Shown one piece after another: positions 6,749 to 57,883 of a stretch of 64,000 nt of DNA. The DNA lies in contig JAGYJY010000017.1 in the NCBI GenBank assembly GCA_018401745.1, positions 88 through 64,087 on the forward strand. The letters run 5' to 3'. A program made the position numbers and the translations under genes. The notes below the pieces were generated by a model. The model saw nothing but the letters and a program-made list of their open reading frames with translations, ran no database searches and was not told where the DNA came from. Position 1 is the stretch's first letter. Every line of letters starts with the position of its first letter. This DNA is from Pirellulales bacterium (GTDB lineage Bacteria; Planctomycetota; Planctomycetia; Pirellulales; UBA1268).

Positions 6749-9261
6749 GTGCGTTTCCCTGACTTGAGCCTGCGAACAGCTGAGAACCCGCCCTGCTGGT
6801 CGCGGGGTGCGCTGACGGCCCTCTTCGTGGCCTGTGGGCTCTGGTGGCTCGCTGTTTTTCAGGCAGAGGCTGCCCGCGGGGAAGAAGCGACGCCCGACTT
6901 CAATCGCGACATCCGCCCAATCCTCTCCCACAACTGCGTTGCCTGTCACGGTCCCGACGAGCACGACCGCCAGGCGGGCCTGCGGCTTGACGACCCTGCA
7001 GCAGCCGCGGCTGAGCTTGAGAGCGGCCTGCGGGCGATCGTGCCTGGGGCACCGCAGAGCAGTGAGATGATCGTCCGCATTCGCGAGCAGGATCCCGATC
7101 TCGTGATGCCGCCGCCAGAGAGCCACCACGTGCTCGACGAGGCCCAAAAGCAGCTGCTTGAGCGGTGGATTGCTGCCGGCGCTCCCTACGCCCCGCACTG
7201 GGCCTACGTTGCTCCCAAGGCCTGGCCTACGCCGGCAGCCATCGATCGGGCCTGGCCACGGTCGTGGATCGATGCCTTTGTGCTCGACAGGCTCAAGCGG
7301 GAGCAGCTTGCCCCGGCGGACGATGCCGATCCGACAACCCTCGTGCGTCGGCTGCATCTCGATCTCACCGGCCTGCCGCCGACACCGGCCGAGCTGGATG
7401 CGTTCCTGGCGGACAGCACAGCCGATCGGGTCGAGCGGCGGGTCGACGCGCTGCTGGCATCCCCCCGGCATGCCGAGCGGCTGGCCAGCTGGTGGCTCGA
7501 CCTCGTCCGCTATGCCGACACCGTCGGCTACCACGGCGACCAGACCCACAACGCCTCACCCTATCGCGACTGGGTGATCCACGCCTTCCTTGAAAATGTG
7601 CCCTTCGATCGCTTCACCCTGCTGCAGCTCGCCGGGGATCTGGTGGAGCCCGCCGAAGGGGAGCATCCAGACGACCGCGTGCTTGCCTCCGCCTACAACC
7701 GGCTGCTGCAGACGTCGCACGAGGGTGGGATTCAAGTCAAGGAGTATCGGGCGATCTACCAGGCCGATCGCGTGCGAAACATCTCAGAGGTCTGGCTCGG
7801 GGCGACGCTCGGCTGCGCCCAGTGCCACGACCATAAATACGATCCCTTGACCAGCCGCGACTTCTACGCGATGGGGGCGTTTTTCGCCGACATCGATGAC
7901 GAGCGGCACATGGGCAATGCCGGCTTTGGCGGCGGCACCAACACGCTGCCCACCACCCGCTTGCCCGAGCGGGCGATTCTGGGGCCGTTTGACCGGGCGG
8001 AGGCGGAGCGGCTGGATCGGGAAATCGCCGAGCTCACCAAGAGGCTTTCTGCTGAGCCAGCTGCCGGCGATCAGGCCACCGGGAATGAGCCTGAGCCGGC
8101 AGCGGTCGTCGCCGCCCGGGAGCAGTCTGCCAGGCTCACAAAGCAGCGGGAGTCGCTCACTCGCGCGGTGATGATCACCGAGCAGCTGAAAACGCCGCGT
8201 GAGGTGCGGCTGCTGCCGCGAGGCAACTGGATGGATGAAACCGGCGAGGCTGTTGAGCCGGCGGTGCTGAGCGTTCTTGGCAGCCTGAACGTGGATGGCC
8301 GTGCCAGCCGCGAAGACCTCGCCCGCTGGCTGACCGAGCCCGTGGCCGAGGGAGGCATCGGTGAACTGACAGCTCGCGTGGTCGTCAACCGGCTGTGGGC
8401 CCTCTTCTTCGGCGAAGGGCTCTGCCGCAGCACCGACGACTTCGGCGGGCAGGGAGAGCCGCCCGATCATCCCGAGCTGCTCGATCGGCTGGCGCTCGAG
8501 CTGGTGGCGTCGGGCTGGGATCTTCGCAGCCTGATTCGGCAGATCGTCACCAGCCGCAGCTACCTTCAGTCCTCGGAGGCTTCGGCCGAGCTGCTCGCCC
8601 GCGATCCCGACAACCGGCTGCTGGCCCGGCAGGGTCGCTGGCGGCTGCCAGCGGAGCATGTCCGTGATGCCGCCCTCTTTGCCGGTGGACTGCTGGTCGA
8701 AGAGCTCGGTGGCCCGAGCGTGCGGCCCTACCAGCCGGCCGGCTACTACCAGCACCTCAACTTTCCCAAGCGAACCTACGCGGCCGACACCGATGAGCAG
8801 CAGTGGCGGCGGGGCCTCTACGTCCACTGGCAGCGGATGTTTCTCCATCCGCAGCTGGCGGCCTTCGATGCGCCGACGCGCGAGGAGTGCACCGCCCGCC
8901 GCCTGCCCTCCAACACACCGACGCAGGCGCTCGTGCTGCTCAACGATCCGACGTTTGTGGAGGCTGCCCGGGGCCTTGCTGCGCGGGCGATGCGGGCCAG
9001 CACCGCCGATGACGATCGGCTTTCCCTGCTCTGGCGGCAGGCGGTCTCGCGGGAGCCTGATGCGACGGAACGGGCGGTGCTGAGGGAGCTGCTTGCCAGG
9101 CGGCGCGAGGAGGCTGCCGCAAACCCCGAGGCGGCTCGAGCGCGCTGCTGGGAGTTGGGATGGCGGCGGCGGATGCGTCGCTGGAGCCGGATGAGCTCGC
9201 AGCCTGGACGGCCGTGGCCCGCAGTGTGCTCAACCTGCACGAGGCCATCGCCCGCTATTAA
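6749..9261 (+). CDS. Planctomycete cytochrome c / PSCyt2 (DUF1549) / PSD1 (DUF1553) protein; apparent frameshift near 9140
   Basis: DFNRDIRPILSHNCVACHGPD (CxxCH), RRLHLDLTGLPP, WLDLVRYADT, CAQCHDHKYDP, NTPTQALVLLNDP. The canonical C-terminus (AAWTAVARSVLNLHEAIARY, stop 9259-9261) lies in a shifted frame. Confidence 0.92.
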
Positions 9262-9297
9262 CAGTCCGCCCCACACCAGCAGGACGAGGAGTCGATC

Positions 9298-10729
9298 ATG
9301 ATCAGCCCGACACCACTGCACCGCCGCTGCTTTCTCGGCCAGGCGGGGCTCTCGCTCGGTGCGGCGTCGCTCGGCGGCCTGCTCGCCCGCGACGGCCTCG
9401 CCGCTCTTGATTTGCCGGCGGCCGCCCGCGGGGCGATCTGGCCGCTGCACCATCCGCCGCAGGCCAAGGCTGTGATCTTTCTCTGCCTGGCCGGTGGGCC
9501 GAGCCACCTGGAAACCTTCGACAACAAGCCGACGCTCGCCCGGCTCGACGGCCAGCCGATGCCCGAGAGCGTGACGGCCGGCCAGCCGATCGCCCAGCTG
9601 CAGGGCAAGGAACTGGTCGTGCTCGGGCCGCGAAAGCCGTTTTCCCGCTACGGGGAATGCGGCGCTGAGATCAGCGACTACCTGCCGCGGCTGGGCGGTT
9701 TTGCCGACCGGCTGGCGATCGTGCGGAGCATGGTCACCGAGCAGATCAACCACGACCCGGCCCACACCTTTCTCAACTGCGGCACCGCCATCTCCGGACG
9801 GCCCAGCATGGGCGCGTGGGTGACCTATGGCCTCGGCAGCGAGGCCGACGACCTGCCCGGCTTTGTGGTGATGACGAGCAAGATGGGCCGCAATCCGCAG
9901 CCGATCGCCGCTCGGCAGTGGCACTCGGGCTTTCTGCCGGGGCAGTTTCAAGGCGTGGAGTTTGCCACGAGCGGTTCGCCGGTGAACTACGTGGCGAGCC
10001 CGCCGGGTGTTTCCGAGGCGCATCAGCGCGACGTGATCGACACGGTGGCGGCCCTCGAGCGGCACCGGCTTGCGACCGTTGCCGATCCAGAAATCGCCAC
10101 GCGAATCCGGCAATATGAGCTCGCCTTCCGGATGCAGATGAGCGTGCCGGAGCTGGCCGATCTCTCCGATGAAACCGCAGAGACTCTCGCTTGCTACGGG
10201 GCTGAGCCTGGCCGCGCGACGATCGGCACCAACTGCCTGATGGCCCGGCGGCTGGTGGAGCGGGGCGTGCGGTTTGTGCATCTCTACCACAGCGACTGGG
10301 ATCACCATGGCGGCATCGAGCCCTACATGGACGAAATCTGTCCGCCGACCGACCGGGCTGCCGCGGCTTTGCTTGCCGACCTGGAGGAGCGAGGCCTGCT
10401 TGAGGAGACGCTCGTGGTGATTGGCGGGGAGTTTGGCCGCACGCCGATGGCCCAGAGCAAAGACAAGGGCGCCGGCCGCGACCATCACATCAAGGGCTTC
10501 AGCATGGCCCTGGCAGGAGGTGGCATCCGCGGCGGGGTGACCCACGGCGAGACCGACGAGTTTGGCTACCACGCGGTGACCGACATCGTGCACGTTCGCG
10601 ACCTGCACGCCACGATGCTGCACCTGCTGGGCATCGACCACACTCGCTTTCAGCGTGGCCTTCCAAGGCCTCGACGCCAAGCTCACCGGCGTGGAGCAAG
10701 CCCGCGTGGTGACGCCGCTGCTGGCGTAG
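9298..10729 (+). CDS. DUF1501 domain protein with Tat-like leader; apparent frameshift near 10650
   Basis: HRRCFLGQ leader, GGPSHLETFD, GRPSMGAWVTYGLGSE, GEFGRTP, HVRDLHATMLHLLGIDH. The canonical end FQGLDAKLTGVE..LLA (TAG 10727-10729) is in a shifted frame. Confidence 0.92.
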
Positions 10730-10840
10730 GGCTCGTGATTCGAGACCTCGTGAAACCAACGTGACGTGCGCCAATCATTGAAGGCACCCCGGGGCACCGA
10801 GGGCCGCGCCCAGCGATGGGCTCGGTTTTCTTGGCTGGCA

Positions 10841-11254
10841 TTATGGGCTGCGGAGGTTTGGATCGCTCTGCCGCAGCTGCCACCAGGAGGTTTTCTCCAG
10901 GGGCAGCCGAGGCACGGAGGATGTCCAGGCTCCGGCGGCATCAAGGGCCCGGCTGAAGGGGCCACCAGCCACGAGGCTCGCGGCGATCACGCCAGCTGCG
11001 ACGGCCGAGAGGGTGGCGGAGATCAGCGACCGCCGCTGCTTCTGCTCGACGAGGTGCGGCTCTGGTGGTGGCAGCGGAATGCCGCCATACCAGTCGCGGA
11101 CCAGGTCTTCGATCGCCAGGGCCGTTCCTGCGGTCCGACGGGCGTCGGCATCGTGGCGCAGGGCATCGGCCGCCCGGTCAGCTTCCTCGAGGATCGACTC
11201 GCCCGAGAGCCAGATGCTGATGTCTTGGCTGAGCTGGTCACGAAGGGGATTCAT
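10841..11254 (-). CDS. Probable membrane-anchored anti-sigma factor
   Basis: Coupled by ATGA overlap to the ECF gene. N-terminal ASD-like helices (ISIWLSGE..EEADRAADAL) and one hydrophobic segment. Confidence 0.55.
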   Translation of the reverse strand: MNPLRDQLSQDISIWLSGESILEEADRAADALRHDADARRTAGTALAIEDLVRDWYGGIPLPPPEPHLVEQKQRRSLISATLSAVAAGVIAASLVAGGPFSRALDAAGAWTSSVPRLPLEKTSWWQLRQSDPNLRSP

Positions 11255-11823
11255 CGTCGGCCCTCCACAATCGCCCCGAGGTATGACCGCAGCTGCGTGC
11301 GGGCGCGGTGGATCGCGTTGTTGACCTCCGCGTAGGAGAGCCCGAGCGTCTCGGCGGTGTCACGGTAGCTGAGCCCCTCGCAGACGGTGAGCAGAAAGCA
11401 GCCCCGCTCCCGGTCCGGAAGGTTGGCGACGGCCTCAGCAACCCGATCGGCCACCTCACGGGTTTCGGCTGCGGCCGCCGGTGAGACAACGGTTGCCGCC
11501 TGGAGCGAGGCGATCCGTCGGTGCTCGGCCTGCCGCGACCTGCGATGATCGATGCACAGCCGGGCGGCAGTCTTCACGAGATACGGTCCGAACAGCTCCT
11601 CAAGCCGATAGCGGTGGCGGTGTTCAAAGAGTCGCTTCAACGCCTCCTGCACAATGTCTTCGGCGAGATGCCGATCACCGAGGAAGGCCGTGGCAAACCG
11701 CAGCACACGCTGGCGGTGGGCTGTTGCCAGCTCCGCAAACATGTCGGCCGACAGGCGTCCAGCGGCCGCCATCTCGCGTGCGGCGGTCGCTCCTCTGGTC
11801 GAGACTGACGGATGGTGTTGCAT
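11251..11823 (-). CDS. ECF RNA polymerase sigma factor
   Basis: Region 2 LAEDIVQEAL...YLVKTAARLCIDH; region 4 EGLSYRDTAETLGLS..VNNAIHRARTQLR. Confidence 0.9.
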   Translation of the reverse strand: MQHHPSVSTRGATAAREMAAAGRLSADMFAELATAHRQRVLRFATAFLGDRHLAEDIVQEALKRLFEHRHRYRLEELFGPYLVKTAARLCIDHRRSRQAEHRRIASLQAATVVSPAAAAETREVADRVAEAVANLPDRERGCFLLTVCEGLSYRDTAETLGLSYAEVNNAIHRARTQLRSYLGAIVEGRR

Positions 11824-11856
11824 GGGATGCTCCCGAACCCGCTCACCTGGCTGAGG

Positions 11857-12822
11857 TTACCACTGCTCGCTCTCTGCAGGCAGCTCGCCATCAGCCCGGT
11901 CTCCAAGCTGTCGCAGCACCTCCGCATCGACGTTTTCGGAAAGGAATCGCACCGCCCCATCGCCCAGGCCGACATTCAGCCCGCCGACATGATGGCTGCC
12001 GAATCCCCCGACGAAGAGTGGATCCTCCGGCGTGGCGTCATCGATCCATGTTTCATCGGTCCTACGAAGGATGGGCGACGTGGTGCGGAGCGTCGAGCGA
12101 GTGCCGGAGGCCCAGCCGAGGTCGCCCTCGCTCCCGCGTCGCTCAGCAATCACCAGCGTGTTGCTCGAGCCGTCGGCGATGTCGGAAAAGCGGATGCGGC
12201 TGTTGAGAAACAGCACACCGTTGTTGTCGTCGTCGATCGGGGCTTCAACGGCGTTGGAGCAGCCGGCATAGTTCGACACGGCCACGCGCTGACTGCCTGA
12301 TTCGCGAACCGACGGCGTTGGTGACGACGGGCACAGCAGTGGCCCGATGACCACCGACCGCACCGCGGCGTTGGTGTCGGCATAGACGCCGTCTTCGATG
12401 CTGAAGTGATGTGCCAGCCGCTGCTGCTCAAAAAAGGGTAGCAGACGCACAATCCAGCCAACGTGATGCCCCTCAGGCAGGCTCCTGATCGGCCCTGATT
12501 CCCCAGAGGAGGCAAACTTTGAGTAGATAAATGTGACGACACCCTCAGGCAGGCTCTTGATCGGTCCTGATTTCCCAGTCACGCCTGCAGGGAATCGCTC
12601 AAAGGCAAACTCATGATTGTGGAGGGCCAGGCCGAGCTGCGCGAGGTTGTTGGTGCAGGAGCATCGCCGCGCGGCCTCTCGAGCGCTCTGCACGGCAGGC
12701 AGGAGCAGGCCGATAAGCACCCCGATGATCGCGATCACGACCAGGAGCTCCACAAGGGTGAAGCCATGCCGGCAGGGCTGTCGGCGGGATGGTGGAGCAG
12801 AGGCGGCGTTTGACGCATTCAT
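11857..12822 (-). CDS. DUF1559 family prepilin-type N-terminal cleavage/methylation protein with H-X9-DG-type motif
   Basis: [84 protein letters not shown]. Confidence 0.95.
12470..12578. repeat. Two 37-bp direct repeats (3 mismatches) separated by a 35-bp AT-rich spacer, in frame inside the DUF1559 gene
   Basis: 12470-12506 ccctcaggcaggctcctgatcggccctgattccccag and 12542-12578 ccctcaggcaggctcttgatcggtcctgatttcccag, encoding [12 protein letters not shown] and [12 protein letters not shown]. Confidence 0.9.
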
Positions 12823-13256
12823 GGCAGAGATTCCTCGGGGGATGGCTGAGAGGGAGGCGAGATCCTGAGATTCCGGGAACGACGAATGGTGAGTGGGCCT
12901 TCGAGCGGGTAGGTGACAACGACGTGGACGCCCTGTGGGTCGTCGGGATCGCGTGCGATGCTGATGCGAGCGGAGCCGGCACCCGTCAGCTGCTGTGGCG
13001 TGAGCTCTACGTCGCCGTCGACTTCCTCGCCTGAGGCATGGCGTGCTCGGGCTAGGTCTTCCGCTGCCACGAGCAGCCGCTCCACCTGTCGCAGCTGCCG
13101 TTCGTGCCGCAGATGGTGGCGGGTCGCGGTGGCGGACCGCAGCATCGTCAGGCCAATGGCCGCGGCCACCGCCATACAGGCCACCGCCACCACCATCACA
13201 CCGCCCCGCCGCGGCTGCTGCCCGCTGGCCAACACCAAGGCCGCCATCGTGGTCAT
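12819..13256 (-). CDS. Pilin-like protein lacking Glu5 (GspK/PilX-like)
   Basis: PRRGG|[20 protein letters not shown]: basic leader, Gly, hydrophobic helix, no E5. ATGA overlaps on both sides. Confidence 0.6.
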
Positions 13257-13783
13257 GGTGAACCCCCTTCCGCCGCTCTCGCTGCGGAGACGGCTGCGAC
13301 GAGGTCGACGGCAAGGCGTGGCCTGCGGGGCGAGTGGCTCTCGATGCGACCCTGCAGGGAGACCAGGGTCCCATCGTAAGATGCGGTCCAGCTGAAGGGC
13401 CGTGAGAACCGGTACGACTCCCGATGGGTTCCGCCGGCAGCGTCGCTCATGAGTCGCGTGAGCGATGTTTCCATGAGGTGGTAGCTGATGTGGCCATCGG
13501 GCACCTCGATCACCACCAGCGGCTCTGAACCGTGCTGGGACGGCTCCCCTGCCCCATCGCATCGCACGCAGCGAGCCTGATGGACGTCGCTGCGAAACTG
13601 CCGCGCCAGCCGGGCGGCGGTCCGCTCGTCAGCCAGAACCTGCCGCGATCGCGACTCAAAGGTGAAACTGCGATGCACGAGGCCCACCGAGGTGGCCATC
13701 ACGACCGAGGCAGCGGTCATCGCGGCCATCAGCTCAAACAGCGACGCACCTCGTCGGCATGCCCCGTGGCCTCTGCGTGTCAT
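13253..13783 (-). CDS. Minor (pseudo)pilin-like protein (GspJ/PilW-like)
   Basis: Class III-like signal RRG|[17 protein letters not shown] with E5. Confidence 0.7.
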
Positions 13784-14232
13784 CGGGCGTCCTCCGGGGC
13801 AGGCAGAGGCGGCAGCCAGGTGGCCAGGGCGAGCGGTCGCTCGTGGCGGCCGGGAGCATCCCAGCCGAGCGAGAGCACAACGGCTTCCCCCAGCGGCGAT
13901 GCTCCGGCCCGTGCGACGGTCAGGCGAGCTCCCGGCAAGAGGTCGTGAAGCTCTGGAGACAGATCGACCGACGCCACCGCAGCATCGAGATTCGTCAACG
14001 AAGCAGCGGCCAGCCGCTCCGCCTGGTTGGCCAGTTCTTCCAGGGCGAGCCGTTCGCGGCGGGTTTCGCCCACCAGCCGCAGCTGCCGAGCAAACAGCGG
14101 CATGATCGTTGCGAGGGCCATGGCCGTGACAGCTGTCGCGGCGACCACTTCCAGCATGGTGAAGCCTACCCGCAGCCTGCCCGATGACGGCCGGGCGGCA
14201 GCCTTGTTTCGCAGCCTGTTAGGCGAGTTCAT
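13780..14232 (-). CDS. Minor (pseudo)pilin-like protein (GspI/PilV-like)
   Basis: Class III signal RVG|FTMLEVVAATAVTAMALATIMPLF. Confidence 0.75.
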   Translation of the reverse strand: MNSPNRLRNKAAARPSSGRLRVGFTMLEVVAATAVTAMALATIMPLFARQLRLVGETRRERLALEELANQAERLAAASLTNLDAAVASVDLSPELHDLLPGARLTVARAGASPLGEAVVLSLGWDAPGRHERPLALATWLPPLPAPEDAR

Positions 14233-15265
14233 CGATCAATCCCGTGAGTGAGGAGAAGACAGCCACCGCCTGAAACAAGACCAGCAGGCCCAGCATCACC
14301 ACTGCCGCAGGCACCAGCGTCTCGCGGAAGGCCTGCCCACGCCTGCCCAAGCGGGTGCGGCGGTTCGCGGCGATGCGGTGCATCACGAGCGTGCCGCTCG
14401 CGGCGTCCGCGTCGATCTGAGCGGCCTCGGCGGGATCGACGAGTCCCGCTGCCGCGAGGTCTGCGCCGAGGGCCCCCGAACGGGCGACCTTGCGAAGGCT
14501 GGCCTTGAGCCGCGGGTCGACGTGGCAGGCGGCCAGCGTGGTCGCGGCCTCGCACGGAGGGAGCCCGGCATCGATCGCCACTGCCAGCAGGTCGAACGCG
14601 GCTGCCCTTCGTCGTGGCCTCCGGAAAGGCCTCAGCAGCAGGCGGCGAAGCGAGGCGGAGAGCCGGCTGACCAGGGCCACCGCGACCACCGCAAAGGGCA
14701 CCCAGGCGATCTGCTCAAGGAAGCGCACGGCGCTCAGCCAGTGCTCAAAGAGAGCAGGCCGGCTGCCCCCTAACTCGCCGAGGACCATTATCAGCTGAGG
14801 CTTGATGAAGACCGCCAGGAAGGCCGTCACCATCAGGAGCATAGCAACGACGAACGACAGGTAGCCAACAGCTCCTCGGAGACTGCGGCCGGGCTTGCAG
14901 GCGAGCAGCTCATCGCCGGCGAGTGCCGTCTGGACCATCGGCCCGAGAAGCCCTGTCTGCTCGCCGAAGGCAACGGCCACCGCGTGGTCCTCCTGGACCA
15001 GCCCAGGCACAGCAGCGATCGCCTCGGAAGCAGTGGCTCCCTGACGGAGCCGCCGGGCGGCCTTCTCCAGACGTGTGCCCTGCCCGCCGCGGCTATCTTC
15101 GGCCCAGGCGTCGAGCAGCATCGCCGCGGGCACGCCCGCCGTGGCGGCTGCAGCAATCAGCCGCACGACCGCACCGCTCTCCGCCCTGGTTGCCCAGGTC
15201 GACCAGGTCCGTCGCCAGTGCCGGCGAAGCCTGCGGCCGATGCGGTGAAGGGAGTTGTCAGGCAT
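14219..15265 (-). CDS. Type II secretion system F / PilC family inner-membrane platform protein
   Basis: RLRQGATASEAI...VAFGEQTGLL, central TM segment ending VFIKPQLIMVLGELG, second repeat and a C-terminal TM segment ending LTGLIDELA. Confidence 0.75.
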   Translation of the reverse strand: MPDNSLHRIGRRLRRHWRRTWSTWATRAESGAVVRLIAAAATAGVPAAMLLDAWAEDSRGGQGTRLEKAARRLRQGATASEAIAAVPGLVQEDHAVAVAFGEQTGLLGPMVQTALAGDELLACKPGRSLRGAVGYLSFVVAMLLMVTAFLAVFIKPQLIMVLGELGGSRPALFEHWLSAVRFLEQIAWVPFAVVAVALVSRLSASLRRLLLRPFRRPRRRAAAFDLLAVAIDAGLPPCEAATTLAACHVDPRLKASLRKVARSGALGADLAAAGLVDPAEAAQIDADAASGTLVMHRIAANRRTRLGRRGQAFRETLVPAAVVMLGLLVLFQAVAVFSSLTGLIDELA

Positions 15266-15307
15266 GGCTGTCGGTGTCCGGCGTCACGGCGTGGAGGCTG
15301 GGGTTGG

Positions 15308-16222
15308 TCACGACAAGGCGTTGATCAGGTGCATCAGGGGCAGCAGCAGTCCCAGCAGAACGAAGCCCACCAACACGGCGATCACAGCGATCAGTGCTGG
15401 GCCTACCAGCAACGGCCCTGCACCGCTCGATCCACGGCACAGGTCTTCGTGGGCAGCCGCAATGGCATCCAGCAGGATCGCAGCGGCGTGCGGATCACAG
15501 TCGAGTGCGGCCGTTGCTGCATAGGTCAGCGGTCGGCGAGGTGCGGCCGTGTCGAGCGGACGTGCCGTCACGAGCCGAGCTGCGACGGCGACCGCGTCCT
15601 GCGGCGGCATGGTGCTGGCCACGAGCCTGGCCAGGCAGCGGGTAAAGTCTGCGGTGCTGCCGGCGGAGCTGCTCATCTGGCGGGTGAGGAGCCAGCGGCC
15701 CACGATCACGACGACGGCCACCGCGATGAGGGGCTGCCAGACGCTCGCGATGAAAGGCCGGATGGCAAGCGTTGCCCTTGTCAGCAGCGGCAGCTCAAGA
15801 CCGAAATCGCGAAAGATCGATTCAAAGGTTGCCAGGACGGTCACCGAGAGAAACGCGAGCAGCCCCAGGGCGAGGACCGCCATGACGGCCGGATAGGCAA
15901 TCGCCGCCCATCTCGTGTGCCCGCCACCACAACGCAGCCCCACCGCTGCCTGCAGGATGCGGGCTGGCAGCCGTGGATCGCCGCTGGGCGATGCAAACAG
16001 CGGTACCCAAGGGGCAAGCGAGGTGTCAGCAGCCTTGATACCGTCGGCGACATTCCCCGAGTCAAGGCATGCCGCCACCGCGAGCCAGGCAGGCCGTTCC
16101 CGTGGCGGAAGCTCCTCCGCGACAAGCCGCACGAAGCCTGCCTGCTCTCGGTGCCGGGCGATCGCCGTGGCCACGTGCGCGGCGATGACGTCGCGGTCGT
16201 CGGGGCGTGTGGCTGCGGTCAT
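15308..16222 (-). CDS. Type II secretion system F / PilC family protein
   Basis: AIAYPAVMAVLAL...FESIFRDFGLELPLLTR (PilC signature) and C-terminal GPALIAVIAVLVGFVLLGLLLPLMHLI. Confidence 0.8.
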   Translation of the reverse strand: MTAATRPDDRDVIAAHVATAIARHREQAGFVRLVAEELPPRERPAWLAVAACLDSGNVADGIKAADTSLAPWVPLFASPSGDPRLPARILQAAVGLRCGGGHTRWAAIAYPAVMAVLALGLLAFLSVTVLATFESIFRDFGLELPLLTRATLAIRPFIASVWQPLIAVAVVVIVGRWLLTRQMSSSAGSTADFTRCLARLVASTMPPQDAVAVAARLVTARPLDTAAPRRPLTYAATAALDCDPHAAAILLDAIAAAHEDLCRGSSGAGPLLVGPALIAVIAVLVGFVLLGLLLPLMHLINALS

Positions 16223-16946
16223 GGCCCACCTCGTGCGCCAATCGGGTCCTGCGGGGCTGCCAACGAGACGAGCAGGCCCGTCATCGGGCGAAACAGGGCA
16301 ACGCCGTAGCACAGCACCGCCAACCCTGCGATCAGGCTGCCCGCCAGCGGCAGCAGGCGGCGAGCCTTTTGTCGCTGCCGCTCGTCGAGCGACCGATAGA
16401 AGGCTGCTACGGCCCGGAGCGTGGCTGCCCGGCTGTCGATATCGCCCTGGGCCTCCGCAAACCTCACCAGCGGCGACGTCGTGCCAGCAGTGGGCAGGTT
16501 GATGGCCTGCACGACAGCGGTGGCGAGCTGTTCGCGTTGGGCTGCAGGCGTCTCGTTTGTAGCACTGCCGATTTCAGCCATCACATCGCACCGGGCCGCA
16601 CGGCCGGCATGGCGACCGACCGTGCCGCTCACGCGAACAGTCCAGGCTGCCAGAGCGACGGCGACGACAACGCCGAGAAGCCCCAGCAGAACCGCAGTGA
16701 GATCGACAGGCAGCCAGGAGGCTTCTGCGGGGATCGGCGGGCTTTCAAAGGCAGTCTCGAGGCCGGCGATCAGCTGCTGCTGCGGGACCAGCGTCCAGGC
16801 CATGCCCACGAGGGCGAGGCCAATGACCACCGCTGGGTAGAGGAGTGCGAGCCGAAACCGCACCTGGTCGTCGCGGACCGTCGCCGAGGCTGTCTCAACA
16901 ATCGCCTTGAGGCGACCGTTTTGGGGGCATCGTGGTCGTGTTTCAT
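16219..16946 (-). CDS. N-terminally short GspF/PilC-like protein; start uncertain, probable frameshift near 16920
   Basis: RLALLYPAVVIGL and C-terminal LPLAGSLIAGLAVLCYGVALFRPMTGLL. ATG 16946 follows a purine-rich RBS and joins the frame if one A is added to the CCCCCAAAA run. Confidence 0.6.
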
Positions 16947-17061
16947 CACTTCCCGTCCTCTCCGCTGGCCGCAGGCAGCAGCACCGAGGGGGAGCCGTCG
17001 CAGCGCCGGCCGTTTGCCGGCACTGAATCGCTGCTGCGAGGTTGCTCCCCACACAAGAGGA

Positions 17062-17187: not shown

Positions 17188-18453
17188 TCAGAGGCTCTCG
17201 GCGGTCGCCCCACGGATCCGCTCAAACTCATGCACAAACAGACCGCTGCGGAGCTTTGGCTCAAACCAGGTGCTCTTTGGCGGCATGATCTCGTCGGCAT
17301 CGGCCACCGCGAGCAGCTCATCAGCGCTCGTGGCGTGCATCGAGAAGGCGACGCCGTCGCTGCCGGCCCGCTTCTCCAGCTCTCCGCAGCCACGCACGCC
17401 GCCCACAAATGCAATCCGGGTGTCGGTTCGCGGATCCCCGATCCCGAGGATCGGCGCCAGCACCCGGTCTTGCAGCAGGGCCACATCGAGCGAAGCGATC
17501 GGATCGCTGCGGTCGATCGACGCTTCTGGGAAGGTCAGCAGCCACCAGCCGCCCGCCACAGCCACGAGCACCTGCCCACGGGAGGCTGGCGTTCCGGCAG
17601 CCGCAGGCTCGAGCGAGCCAACCTCGCGGAGCTTCTCGAAGAATGCCTCGGCAGAAAGCCCGTTGCGGTCGGCCACCACCCGGTTGTAGGGCAGGATGCG
17701 GAGCTGGTCGTGCGGAAAGATCACCGCCAGAAAACGGTTGTATTCCTCGCTGCCGTTGTGGCTGGCACTGGCCTTCTGCGAGGCGGTGGCTGCCCGCTCG
17801 CCGCCAGCAGAGCGGTGATGTCCGTCGGCGATGTAGAGTCGTCCGAGGCCTTCGAAGGCCGACACATAGGCAGCCGGGGTTGCCACCGGCCAGCCGGTGT
17901 GCTGCACGCCGGCTGGGTCCACAAAGTCAAAGAGCGGCTCCCCCGCCATGTCACCGGCCATCCGCTCGGCGATCGTCATGCCGCCGGAAGCCTCGTCGCG
18001 AAAGCAGAGAAACACAGGCTCGGCGTGGCTCGCCGTCACCAGCATGTGCCGCGTGCGGTCGTCTTCCTTGTCGGGCCGCGTCTTTTCATGCTTGCGAATC
18101 TCACCGGTGCGGTATTGCTCGGCTTCCACGCAGGCCACCACACCCGTCTGGGCCACGCCCTCGCGAATCTGTCGATAGAGAAAGAGGCTCGGCGAGGGCT
18201 CTCGAGACAGCGTGCCGTCGGCAATCATCGCCTGCAGGTTGTCGCTGGCCTTCTGGTAGACCTCCGCTGCATGGCAGTCGGTCTCCTCAGGAAGATCGAT
18301 CTCCGACCGCACGACATGCAGAAACGACTTCGGCTTTCCCTCGGCTCGCTCCCTCGCCTCCTGCGTGGAGATCACGTCGTAGGGATCGCAGGCGACCTCG
18401 GCGGCGTTTTCGGCGGAGGGACGAAGGGCGGCGAAGGGATGAATGCGGATCAT
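17188..18453 (-). CDS. DUF1015 family protein
   Basis: IHPFAALRP..ACDPYDV, IRKHEKTRPDKEDDR, LYIADGHHRSA, IMPPKSTWFEPKLRSGLFVH. Confidence 0.93.
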   Translation of the reverse strand: MIRIHPFAALRPSAENAAEVACDPYDVISTQEARERAEGKPKSFLHVVRSEIDLPEETDCHAAEVYQKASDNLQAMIADGTLSREPSPSLFLYRQIREGVAQTGVVACVEAEQYRTGEIRKHEKTRPDKEDDRTRHMLVTASHAEPVFLCFRDEASGGMTIAERMAGDMAGEPLFDFVDPAGVQHTGWPVATPAAYVSAFEGLGRLYIADGHHRSAGGERAATASQKASASHNGSEEYNRFLAVIFPHDQLRILPYNRVVADRNGLSAEAFFEKLREVGSLEPAAAGTPASRGQVLVAVAGGWWLLTFPEASIDRSDPIASLDVALLQDRVLAPILGIGDPRTDTRIAFVGGVRGCGELEKRAGSDGVAFSMHATSADELLAVADADEIMPPKSTWFEPKLRSGLFVHEFERIRGATAESL

Positions 18454-18547
18454 CGGGTCTCTCGAGGGCTGGCGTGTCGGCGAGTCGGCGTGCACGCGGA
18501 GGATAGCGATGCCCGCGACCGTGGTGCAAATGCTGCGCGGCCTGAGC

Positions 18548-56599: not shown

Positions 56600-57883
56600 C
56601 TAGTCGATGAGAAAGCCGTAGCTGCCGTCGTCAGCCTTGATGATTCGAACCATCGGCTGCTGGAGCTGACCACCGCCCTCATCGCCTGAAGCGCTGAGCG
56701 ATTCCGGCTGGGTGATCTCGCCGCCATTGCGGGTGAGGAAGGGAGCGAGCGTGTCGCGGTCGAGATCGCCGCGCACCGTGCGGACAGAGCCGTCGGCGAA
56801 GCCAACAAGGCCGACACGTTCTCCCGGCGAGGCTCCAGGATGCGGTGCACCGATGCCCGCCGGCTTGCCCACTCCGGGAAAAGCCTCATCAAAGACGATG
56901 TCTTCCGGCTTGGTCCAGGGAATCTTCCGTTCGGGATCAACTGTGGCAAACATGATCGTGTTGGACGTGCCGTCGGTCACGTCGCGAAAATGCAGTTTCT
57001 TGCGACTGAGGCATGCCGGGAAGTCGTCTGGCGACTGCATCTTCACCAGATTGGGGGCGAAGAGCGCGTTGTCGCCAACAATCGCGGCATAGTTCGTCAA
57101 CGCCCCTTCGCCTTCCACTGCTGGATCTCGATAGACGTTGACCACAGTCTCGCTGACCTGCCGATTCGCCGGCGAATCCCACGGCTGTGAGAAGTCGTAC
57201 TGCTCGTAGAGAGCCTGTTGCTCGAGAAAGGGGAGGAGGAGCACTCGCCAGGAGTGCCAGGGCTTGCCGTCTGGGCCGTAGATCACCGCCGGGGGGAAGC
57301 TGCGATAGGCATCGGCGTAGTTGTGGAAGGCAAGCCCGATCTGCTTGAGATTGTTCATCGACGCTGAGCGGCGGGCGGCTGCTCGGGCTGCCTCCATCGC
57401 TCCGAGAAGGCCACCGTCGGCATCGAGCGGCTTGCTCGTCAGCACATCAGGGAGCTCGCGAAGCTGCCGCGTCGTGGCTGGCGCGATGCGTCCTCCCGCG
57501 CCCATCTCGCCAGAAAACGGCCGGAAGAGCACAGCAGGCCCCCGCCGCATCGCGGCGGCGGCCCCATCGCCAAAGGCGACGAGCATTTCGCCATCCTTGA
57601 GCACCTCGCGGACGTCCACGCGGATAAGCGTGTCGAACGGGCCTCGGCCTGAAGACGAAAGGAGCATCACCCCAAGGCCTTCACTGGCCGAAAAGAACGG
57701 CGTCTGCGGCCGAGCCTTCACGATCGCAGTCTTTGCCTCACGGTCAACCGAGTCGATCTGATGGGTGGGCTCCCGGAAGAAGGGCATGCTCATCTCGACG
57801 CGGTCTTCTCCGCGGGCCGAAGAGGGCAGCAGGAAAAGGCTGCCCACAGCGAGCAGGAACAGACATACAGCCATTCGTGACAT
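56600..57883 (-). CDS. DUF1559-domain protein with a Sec-type signal and an extra N-terminal domain instead of a prepilin leader
   Basis: [25 protein letters not shown]; internal [53 protein letters not shown]. Confidence 0.82.

Follow-up and report, generated by a model that had tools for sequence, protein, structure and literature searches.

Platforms built from more than one side-by-side GspF-family gene have a precedent in the Tad/Flp machines, in which TadB and TadC, two platform paralogues with one T2SSF domain each, are encoded beside the CpaF/TadA ATPase and the Flp pilins. The locus described here has three diverged genes of this kind, against one in systems for type II secretion (T2SS). 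It lies in a 64,000-nucleotide stretch of DNA from a Pirellulales bacterium (JAGYJY010000017.1, positions 88-64087; contig C16 of G000, an assembly of 2.88 Mb in 28 contigs that is 74% complete), referred to below as the window, where nine co-oriented genes, all with open frames, follow one another on the minus strand over positions 10841-17052. They encode three membrane proteins (F1, F2 and F3), three minor prepilins (I, J and K), a DUF1559 prepilin (G), a sigma factor of the extracytoplasmic function (ECF) type and a putative anti-sigma factor. On balance, the locus as a whole is probably best explained as a conserved planctomycete type IV filament cassette, of which this genome has two copies and whose nearest described relative is the pseudopilus module of the T2SS. 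The cassette would be a T2SS-like type IV filament system.

The available text of Guilvout et al. (2023, PMC10790770) describes a model of PulF, the platform protein of the Klebsiella T2SS, as a homotrimer in which the bundle of transmembrane segments TMS1 and TMS3 is the channel. The channel is constricted by Tyr168 and Glu370, each beside an invariant proline, and the N-domain of PulF is dispensable. For planctomycetes, the accessible parts of two papers present the DUF1559/H-X9-DG prepilins as the largest paralogous family in many species, of unknown function (PMC10632474, PMC8567305), and one of them also records an expansion of N_methyl plus SBP_bac_10 proteins (PMC8567305). The accessible sections of Rivas-Marin et al. 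(2023, PMC10632474) credit Planctopirus limnophila with 68 DUF1559 paralogues, two of them essential, and with a run of genes, Plim_0410-Plim_0401, in which six unknowns restricted to the phylum come after four 'type II secretion' genes; those sections mention neither three platform paralogues nor a priming trio, nor any link to DUF1559 assembly. No description of three platform genes in tandem in a planctomycete came up in a literature search.

The three membrane proteins had been called F-like in an earlier reading of the window (the original prediction), and family and profile comparisons bear this out: F1, F2 and F3 are GspF/PilC homologues. Against PF00482 (T2SSF), F3 (14219-15265, minus strand, 348 aa) scored 41.1 bits, above the cut-off of 25.2, in two stretches, and it was aligned over GspF positions 59-392 in NCBIfam. 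F2 (15308-16222, minus strand, 304 aa from ATG 16222) stayed below the PF00482 cut-off at 17.6 bits and gave a partial alignment with the NCBIfam GspF model TIGR02120 (E 8.9e-12), and the short paralogue F1 (16219-17052, minus strand), searched as a single sequence, had no match in Pfam. Profiles made from 13 orthologs each all matched PilC of M. xanthus (3jc8_Ca), with E values of 1.5e-6 for F1, 6.2e-28 for F2 and 2.2e-14 for F3, and hhalign comparisons between these profiles gave probabilities of 97-99% (97% for F1 with F3, 98% for F1 with F2). Three hydrophobic segments are present in each protein, at the positions of GspF TMS1-3. The three orthologs in a sister family, labelled f19 here, scored 118, 102 and 68 bits against PF00482, in two stretches each. 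The two T2SSF stretches of F3 and of the f19 proteins are a difference from Tad, as are the pilins, which are GspG/I/J-like with no Flp-type pilin seen.

The layout given in the original prediction, nine co-oriented genes mostly with overlapping stop and start codons, was found at 10841-17052, and so were all the pilin motifs that it quoted. Five of the eight junctions (F1/F2, I/J, J/K, K/G and sigma/anti-sigma) are 4-nt ATGA overlaps; F3 and I overlap by 14 nt, and gaps of 42 nt and 33 nt separate F2 from F3 and G from the sigma gene.

By comparison with related genomes, the conserved core of the locus is the seven genes F1-F2-F3-I-J-K-G, which are inherited as a unit. The second copy, on contig C12 of the same assembly (L020 7859-13108, plus strand), has the same order, and each of its genes is the top match for the gene at the corresponding position, at 34-52% identity. 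When loci of relatives were fetched around their F3 matches, the order was kept in 15 of 18, 12 with all seven genes and three without an F1 detectable by tblastn; the remaining three were ordinary GspE-GspF-pilin loci. The same order was found in three loci of the sister family and in two further genomes of the same order, G035 and G039, so the prediction that the gene order would be conserved in relatives was upheld. Profile matches to F1 were obtained in 19 of 41 relatives. The three loci lacking F1 by tblastn (L043 of G006, L048 of G011 and L049 of G020) would be two-platform versions; a profile search brought up a weak F1 with an internal TGA in G006 and a weak 275-aa frame in G011. In the sister-family loci (L162 5567-16752, and likewise L163 and L164), F3 carries an N-terminal extension of ~200 aa, and a 634-aa protein without a family match follows the DUF1559 pilin.

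In a FastTree phylogeny of 42 cassette platform proteins and five canonical ones, F1, F2 and F3 each formed one clade that included the sister family (supports 0.996, 0.755 and 0.991), with canonical PilC/GspF apart. The triplication is older than the separation of these lineages. Measured against the orthologs in G001, a genome of the same genus with 95% identity, the dN/dS of the seven cassette genes is 0.19-0.58, which indicates purifying selection. Across 201 genomes of the phylum, the K-pilin profile gave full-length matches in small frames only here and in seven of the eight genomes of one sister family, its other hits being N-terminal segments of large proteins; with that query, the cassette looks confined to the class. 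The F2 profile was rejected as a phylum-wide marker, being non-discriminating: it matched canonical PilC in 295 of 301 genomes. A search with the four closest F2 rows returned four cassette loci; its 76 other results were single canonical PilC genes, chiefly from Verrucomicrobia, and do not represent cassettes.

The sigma and anti-sigma genes do not belong to this core. The sigma gene (11251-11823, minus strand) matched PF04542 (Sigma70_r2, 57.2 bits), PF08281 (Sigma70_r4_2, 51.4 bits) and TIGR02937 (91.7 bits, cut-off 42.9), and by this domain content its product is an ECF sigma factor with regions 2 and 4 only. The protein encoded next (10841-11254, minus strand, 137 aa) gave no Pfam or NCBIfam match at E up to 0.1 and has a single hydrophobic segment, at residues 77-95; it is labelled an anti-sigma factor solely because of the ATGA overlap, the single hydrophobic helix and the conserved pairing with the sigma gene, which is also seen in G001 and G010. 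The original prediction had attached this pair to the system as a possible signalling arm. Tentatively, the pair could work together with this cassette subtype: the filament or its platform might report the state of the envelope through the single-pass anti-sigma, or the sigma factor might drive the cassette. The pair follows G on the same strand after 33 nt that contain no terminator-like site, and contigs from RNA libraries bridge G and the sigma gene (11555-12513 in run X19 and 11160-12234 in run X20). Sigma orthologs were found in only three of 25 genomes (G000, G001 and G010), and these are the three whose cassette groups with the window subtype and not with the C12 subtype; the four other species of the genus have the C12 subtype only and lack both the window subtype and the sigma factor. 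The anti-sigma gene, moreover, has a dN/dS of 0.03 against G001, the strongest constraint among the nine genes.

Against this, the pair follows a cassette in only one of 15 cassette loci, that of the same-genus ortholog in G001. In G010, from the next genus, the two genes are together on a separate 11.3-kb contig without a cassette gene, and other ORFs follow the cassette, as does an ABC transporter ATPase, with no sigma factor, behind the C12 copy. No promoter-like motif common to the regions upstream of the cassettes and of the G010 sigma gene was found, the shared k-mers being GC-rich chance words. The bridging contigs come from two metatranscriptome runs of one study, X19 and X20, which cover parts of F1, F2, F3, I, G and the sigma and anti-sigma genes; DNA carry-over into the libraries is possible, and a contig that spans two genes is not equivalent to one transcript. 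These contigs leave 12910-13793 (J and K) uncovered, a gap that is not interpretable. Three genomes from two genera are also too few and too closely related for a test of co-occurrence. Judged by its distribution, the pair is a lineage-specific neighbour outside the conserved machine: the linkage that had been claimed exists here and in G001, and is absent in the next genus. The pair may nevertheless regulate the window subtype of the cassette or be co-expressed with it.

The pilins of the cassette resemble a T2SS minor pseudopilin set to different degrees. The clearest case is J (13253-13783, minus strand, motif GASLFE). Its AF2 model (pLDDT 85.2) was compared with 48,161 chains by VIA-align, and the top three were XcpW (Z 9.9, rmsd 3.0 over 112 aligned residues), EpsJ (Z 8.9) and GspJ (Z 8.8), with unrelated chains at Z 5.6 or below. 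The model thus makes a solid case for J as a predicted minor pseudopilin of the GspJ fold. I (13780-14232, minus strand, motif GFTMLE) is a conserved family (11 rows) and is weakly GspI-like: it matched TIGR01707 (gspI) with E 9.5e-5 and 22.8 bits, below the cut-off of 44.35. K (12819-13256, minus strand, 145 aa) has the motif RRG-GVMVV without Glu5, conserved in 11 orthologs, and its AF2 model (pLDDT 84.5) is a long helix with a four-stranded sheet. The best fold match of K was the pilin core of GspK (3ci0_K, Z 7.6); a competence pilin and EpsI, both at Z 7.1, are within 1 Z of it, a tie. Since the fold is tied with GspI-type and competence pilins and the inserted domain of GspK is missing, an assignment of K as GspK specifically was rejected. 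Sequence profiles of I, J and K retrieved no GspI, GspJ or GspK from the PDB, J matching generic pilin N-termini only, and Foldseek on the models of J and K gave nothing at E <= 0.001. The original label of an I-J-K-like set is consequently solid for the fold of J, the gene order and the missing Glu5 of K, and weak otherwise.

The last prepilin, G (11857-12822, minus strand, 321 aa from ATG 12822, motif GFTLVE), had been named a DUF1559 pilin, correctly so: it exceeded the cut-offs of PF07596 (182.5 bits), PF07963 (N_methyl, 33.4 bits), TIGR02532 (29.1 bits) and TIGR04294 (28.6 bits), and carries the H-X9-DG motif. Among equivalog models its N-terminus scored best against that of GspG (TIGR01710, E 2.4e-9, sub-threshold). 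The whole assembly has 26 DUF1559 matches, corresponding to ~20 genes. A further match in the window, at ~56945-57391 on the minus strand (133.8 bits, model positions 2-172, within a 511-aa frame), is unlinked to the cassette.

Taken together, the likeness to the T2SS consists of a GspF-family platform, a GspJ-fold J, a weakly GspI-like I and an E5-less K in the order I-J-K, a GspG-like N-terminus on the terminal pilin and, in relatives, a GspE-family ATPase at the head of the operon. Besides the number of platform genes, the differences are that the cassette has no secretin and no GspH, that K lacks the inserted domain of GspK, that the candidate polymer is a ~300-aa DUF1559/H-X9-DG protein instead of a ~140-aa GspG, and that the ATPase gene is detached in this genome.

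The absence of a PilB/GspE ATPase, a secretin and PilD from the window, noted originally, was confirmed by family searches of the whole assembly, which placed no T2SSE ATPase (PF00437), secretin or prepilin peptidase on contig C16; nor was a secretin found in any cassette locus examined. Elsewhere in the assembly there are orphan GspE-family ATPases on C9 and C17, one unlinked PF00263 secretin gene on C23 and a prepilin peptidase on C6. The description of the cassette as one without a motor therefore fits this copy, but the state is a derived one. In G035 and G039 an ATPase of ~400-450 aa directly precedes F1-F2-F3-I-J-K-G, contiguously, and G031, also of this order, shows ATPase-F-F on a short contig. 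In the three sister-family loci, genes for a divergent 447-aa GspE-family ATPase (PF00437, 154 bits) and then for a CNNM-domain membrane protein stand before F1. By these ATPase-headed cassettes the full form is an eight-gene operon, and the window copy is a derivative of it with the motor detached. The P. limnophila run Plim_0410-Plim_0401, as far as the available sections of PMC10632474 describe it, resembles the sister-family arrangement ATPase-FFF-IJK-G in composition; the window copy has no ATPase.

Detached motors were seen in other genomes too. In G003 and G004, of the same genus, the short type of ATPase is an orphan, the surrounding 13-14 kb being free of platform genes. Among 41 relatives, no ortholog of the sister-family cassette ATPase exceeds 33% identity. 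The orphan on C9 (L021 7675-9294, minus strand, 539 aa) has a ~150-aa hydrophobic N-terminus in place of the usual N-domain and is flanked by LutB-like and D12 methyltransferase genes; its orthologs are full-length in 20 of 24 family-mates, and a 21st, in G014, starts from residue 70. The C17 gene (~76.0-77.4 kb; L173 5738-7383, plus strand) is split over two frames at the conserved GGE..V.LRLL, probably because a one-base error interrupts a single gene, and has a universal-stress-protein-like stretch on its N-terminal side in the same frame. No F-, I-, J- or K-like ORF was found near the C9-type or type2 ATPases.

The relation between the three platform proteins was approached through the channel positions of PulF, with which they share the topology, TMS1 and TMS3 being the segments of the channel-lining Tyr-Pro and Glu-Pro positions. 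An alignment of 47 proteins was used, comprising 14 rows each of F1, F2 and F3 and five canonical proteins. Both the YP pair in TMS1 and the EP pair in TMS3 are present in all five canonical proteins. F1 keeps YP in 13 of its 14 rows and EP in none; F2 has YP in 14 of 14 and GP in 12 of 14, with EP in a single row, from the sister family; and F3 retains the tyrosine in 13 of 14 rows with neither the proline nor EP in any, an acidic residue standing four positions upstream in 13 of 14. Each paralogue has thus degenerated differently, and none keeps both canonical pairs. The complementary losses, together with the fixed order and the coupled translation, fit an obligate heteromer. In comparison with the PulF homotrimer, the protomers here would be three different proteins, none with both pairs, and any channel would be an asymmetric one in which no ring position has more than one acidic residue. 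The window-subtype F1 is without most of the first cytoplasmic region, and the dispensability of the N-domain of PulF, given in the available text of PMC10790770, is in line with so short a protein.

An alternative is that F1, F2 and F3 form separate homo-oligomeric platforms serving different pilin sets or ATPases. Genomes with more than one pilB-pilC paralogue pair, exchangeable only in part, are reported for haloarchaea, and the present genome has ~20 DUF1559 genes and two orphan ATPases; some relatives, moreover, apparently do without a recognisable F1. However, the sequence F1-F2-F3 does not vary, each paralogue has its orthologs in both orders, F1 and F2 are joined by an ATGA overlap, and the cassette has one pilin set and not three. 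As no paralogue keeps both of the channel pairs found in all canonical proteins, homo-oligomers would also be without the conserved constriction. This alternative is accordingly considered unlikely.

In the preferred reading of a T2SS-like filament cassette, F1, F2 and F3 would assemble 1:1:1 into an asymmetric platform, for which the PulF homotrimer model makes a heterotrimer the likeliest form by analogy. The platform would dock a hexameric GspE-type ATPase encoded elsewhere, for which the orphan genes on C9 and C17 are candidates. I, J and K would form a priming tip, the prepilin peptidase on C6 would process the pilins, and the DUF1559 pilin, possibly along with other members of its family, would polymerise behind the tip to give a pseudopilus or a fibre.

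Several observations weigh against this reading. The prediction of a complex with F1 as the partner of F2 and F3 reached a score of 0.57, the best of three controls giving 0.31, with a contact agreement across runs of at least 73% and a partner pLDDT of at least 61. Of 80 solved complexes 58 reach the mark set for this score, as do 2 of 110 mismatched pairs, but at 0.60 or below only seven of the 80 do so, along with both mismatches; the result, whose controls did not include homotrimers, was graded as weak support and no clear pass. The heteromeric three-subunit platform first proposed is therefore in keeping with the motif losses and is only weakly backed by modelling. It is also not universal, F1 being missing, weak or broken in G006, G011 and G020, and the N-terminal cytoplasmic region present in B-type and f19 F1 is missing from the window F1, which in addition is frameshifted at its start in the assembly. 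On the motor side, the two kinds of cassette-linked ATPase do not form one clade in a FastTree phylogeny, so the pairing of motor and platform is evolutionarily labile, and neither has a close ortholog in this assembly (best identities 27-40%). Co-occurrence is uninformative about a dedicated motor: the C9 type is present in all 12 cassette-bearing family-mates, but also in eight of the 12 that are cassette-free. The assignments of I and K are weak, and none of the nine genes matched GspC, GspL or GspM in Pfam or NCBIfam, where no search was aimed at those families or at PilM/N/O.

Of the planctomycete-specific endopilus originally envisaged, the conserved cassette with one DUF1559 pilin stands, and the signalling pair falls outside the conserved unit. 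A stronger proposal would combine four elements: an obligate, symmetry-broken F1:F2:F3 heterotrimer in which the three Tyr/Glu pairs have become an asymmetric ring with a single acidic residue; a freely exchangeable GspE-type motor; a role as the general assembly machine for all DUF1559 pilins of the Planctomycetia (~20 genes here, 68 in P. limnophila according to the accessible part of PMC10632474); and, in this lineage, a co-inherited ECF sigma/anti-sigma pair that reads out or controls its activity. As a joint claim this is doubtful. The cassette is of interest in any case, because it joins exactly one DUF1559 pilin to a priming trio and a platform and so is a candidate assembly machine for the family, one that can be deleted, tagged or imaged in cultured species. 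Its three platform paralogues, fixed and each degenerated in its own way, amount to a natural experiment bearing on whether GspF/PilC is a trimer and whether the Tyr/Glu channel is needed, and the repeated separation of ATPase and cassette shows that motor and platform need not be co-encoded, which matters for automated system detection.

The start of F1 merits separate description. The original prediction ended the locus at 16946, which is indeed the conserved ATG of F1; in the assembly, however, this codon is one base out of frame with the F1 body, the difference lying within a run of G at 16923-16927. The G001 ortholog has one more base just downstream of the start codon. Contigs from three of four public runs (X19, X18 and X2) have an extra G in the run, and X20, at a depth of 2.2, does not. 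The extra G makes F1 a protein of 242 aa; in its absence, the frame stays open for 277 aa from an in-frame GTG at 17052. The G5 homopolymer is probably one base short through an assembly error.

It is very improbable that the motor-less copy is a decaying remnant without present function, since the signs of decay (no ATPase on the contig, the frameshifted F1 start, an in-frame TGA in the C12 F2 near L020 9127, where the G001 ortholog in L051 is intact, and dN/dS of 0.45-0.58 for F1, I and J) are set against nine open frames, a dN/dS below 1 for every gene, intact ATPase-less cassettes in at least 12 relatives' loci, an F1 difference of one base in homopolymer length for which three of four runs favour the intact gene, and the coverage of several genes by RNA-library contigs.

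A scan of the locus for promoters and terminators gave no promoter-like sites and three terminator-like sites, with 3.1 expected. One contig of run X18 joins positions 12711 and 16461, skipping 3749 nt, with 22 nt on the shorter side; the joint may be a chimera between similar stretches coding for hydrophobic helices.

Directly upstream of F1, on the same strand, is a gene for a DUF1015 protein (17188-18495, minus strand, 300.8 bits), which is also found upstream of the cassette in G001 at 95% identity. On the other side, at 6749-10764 on the plus strand, genes for a PSCyt1/DUF1549/DUF1553 protein and then a DUF1501 protein, with overlapping stop and start codons, converge on the anti-sigma gene, and this pair too is conserved beside the locus in G001.

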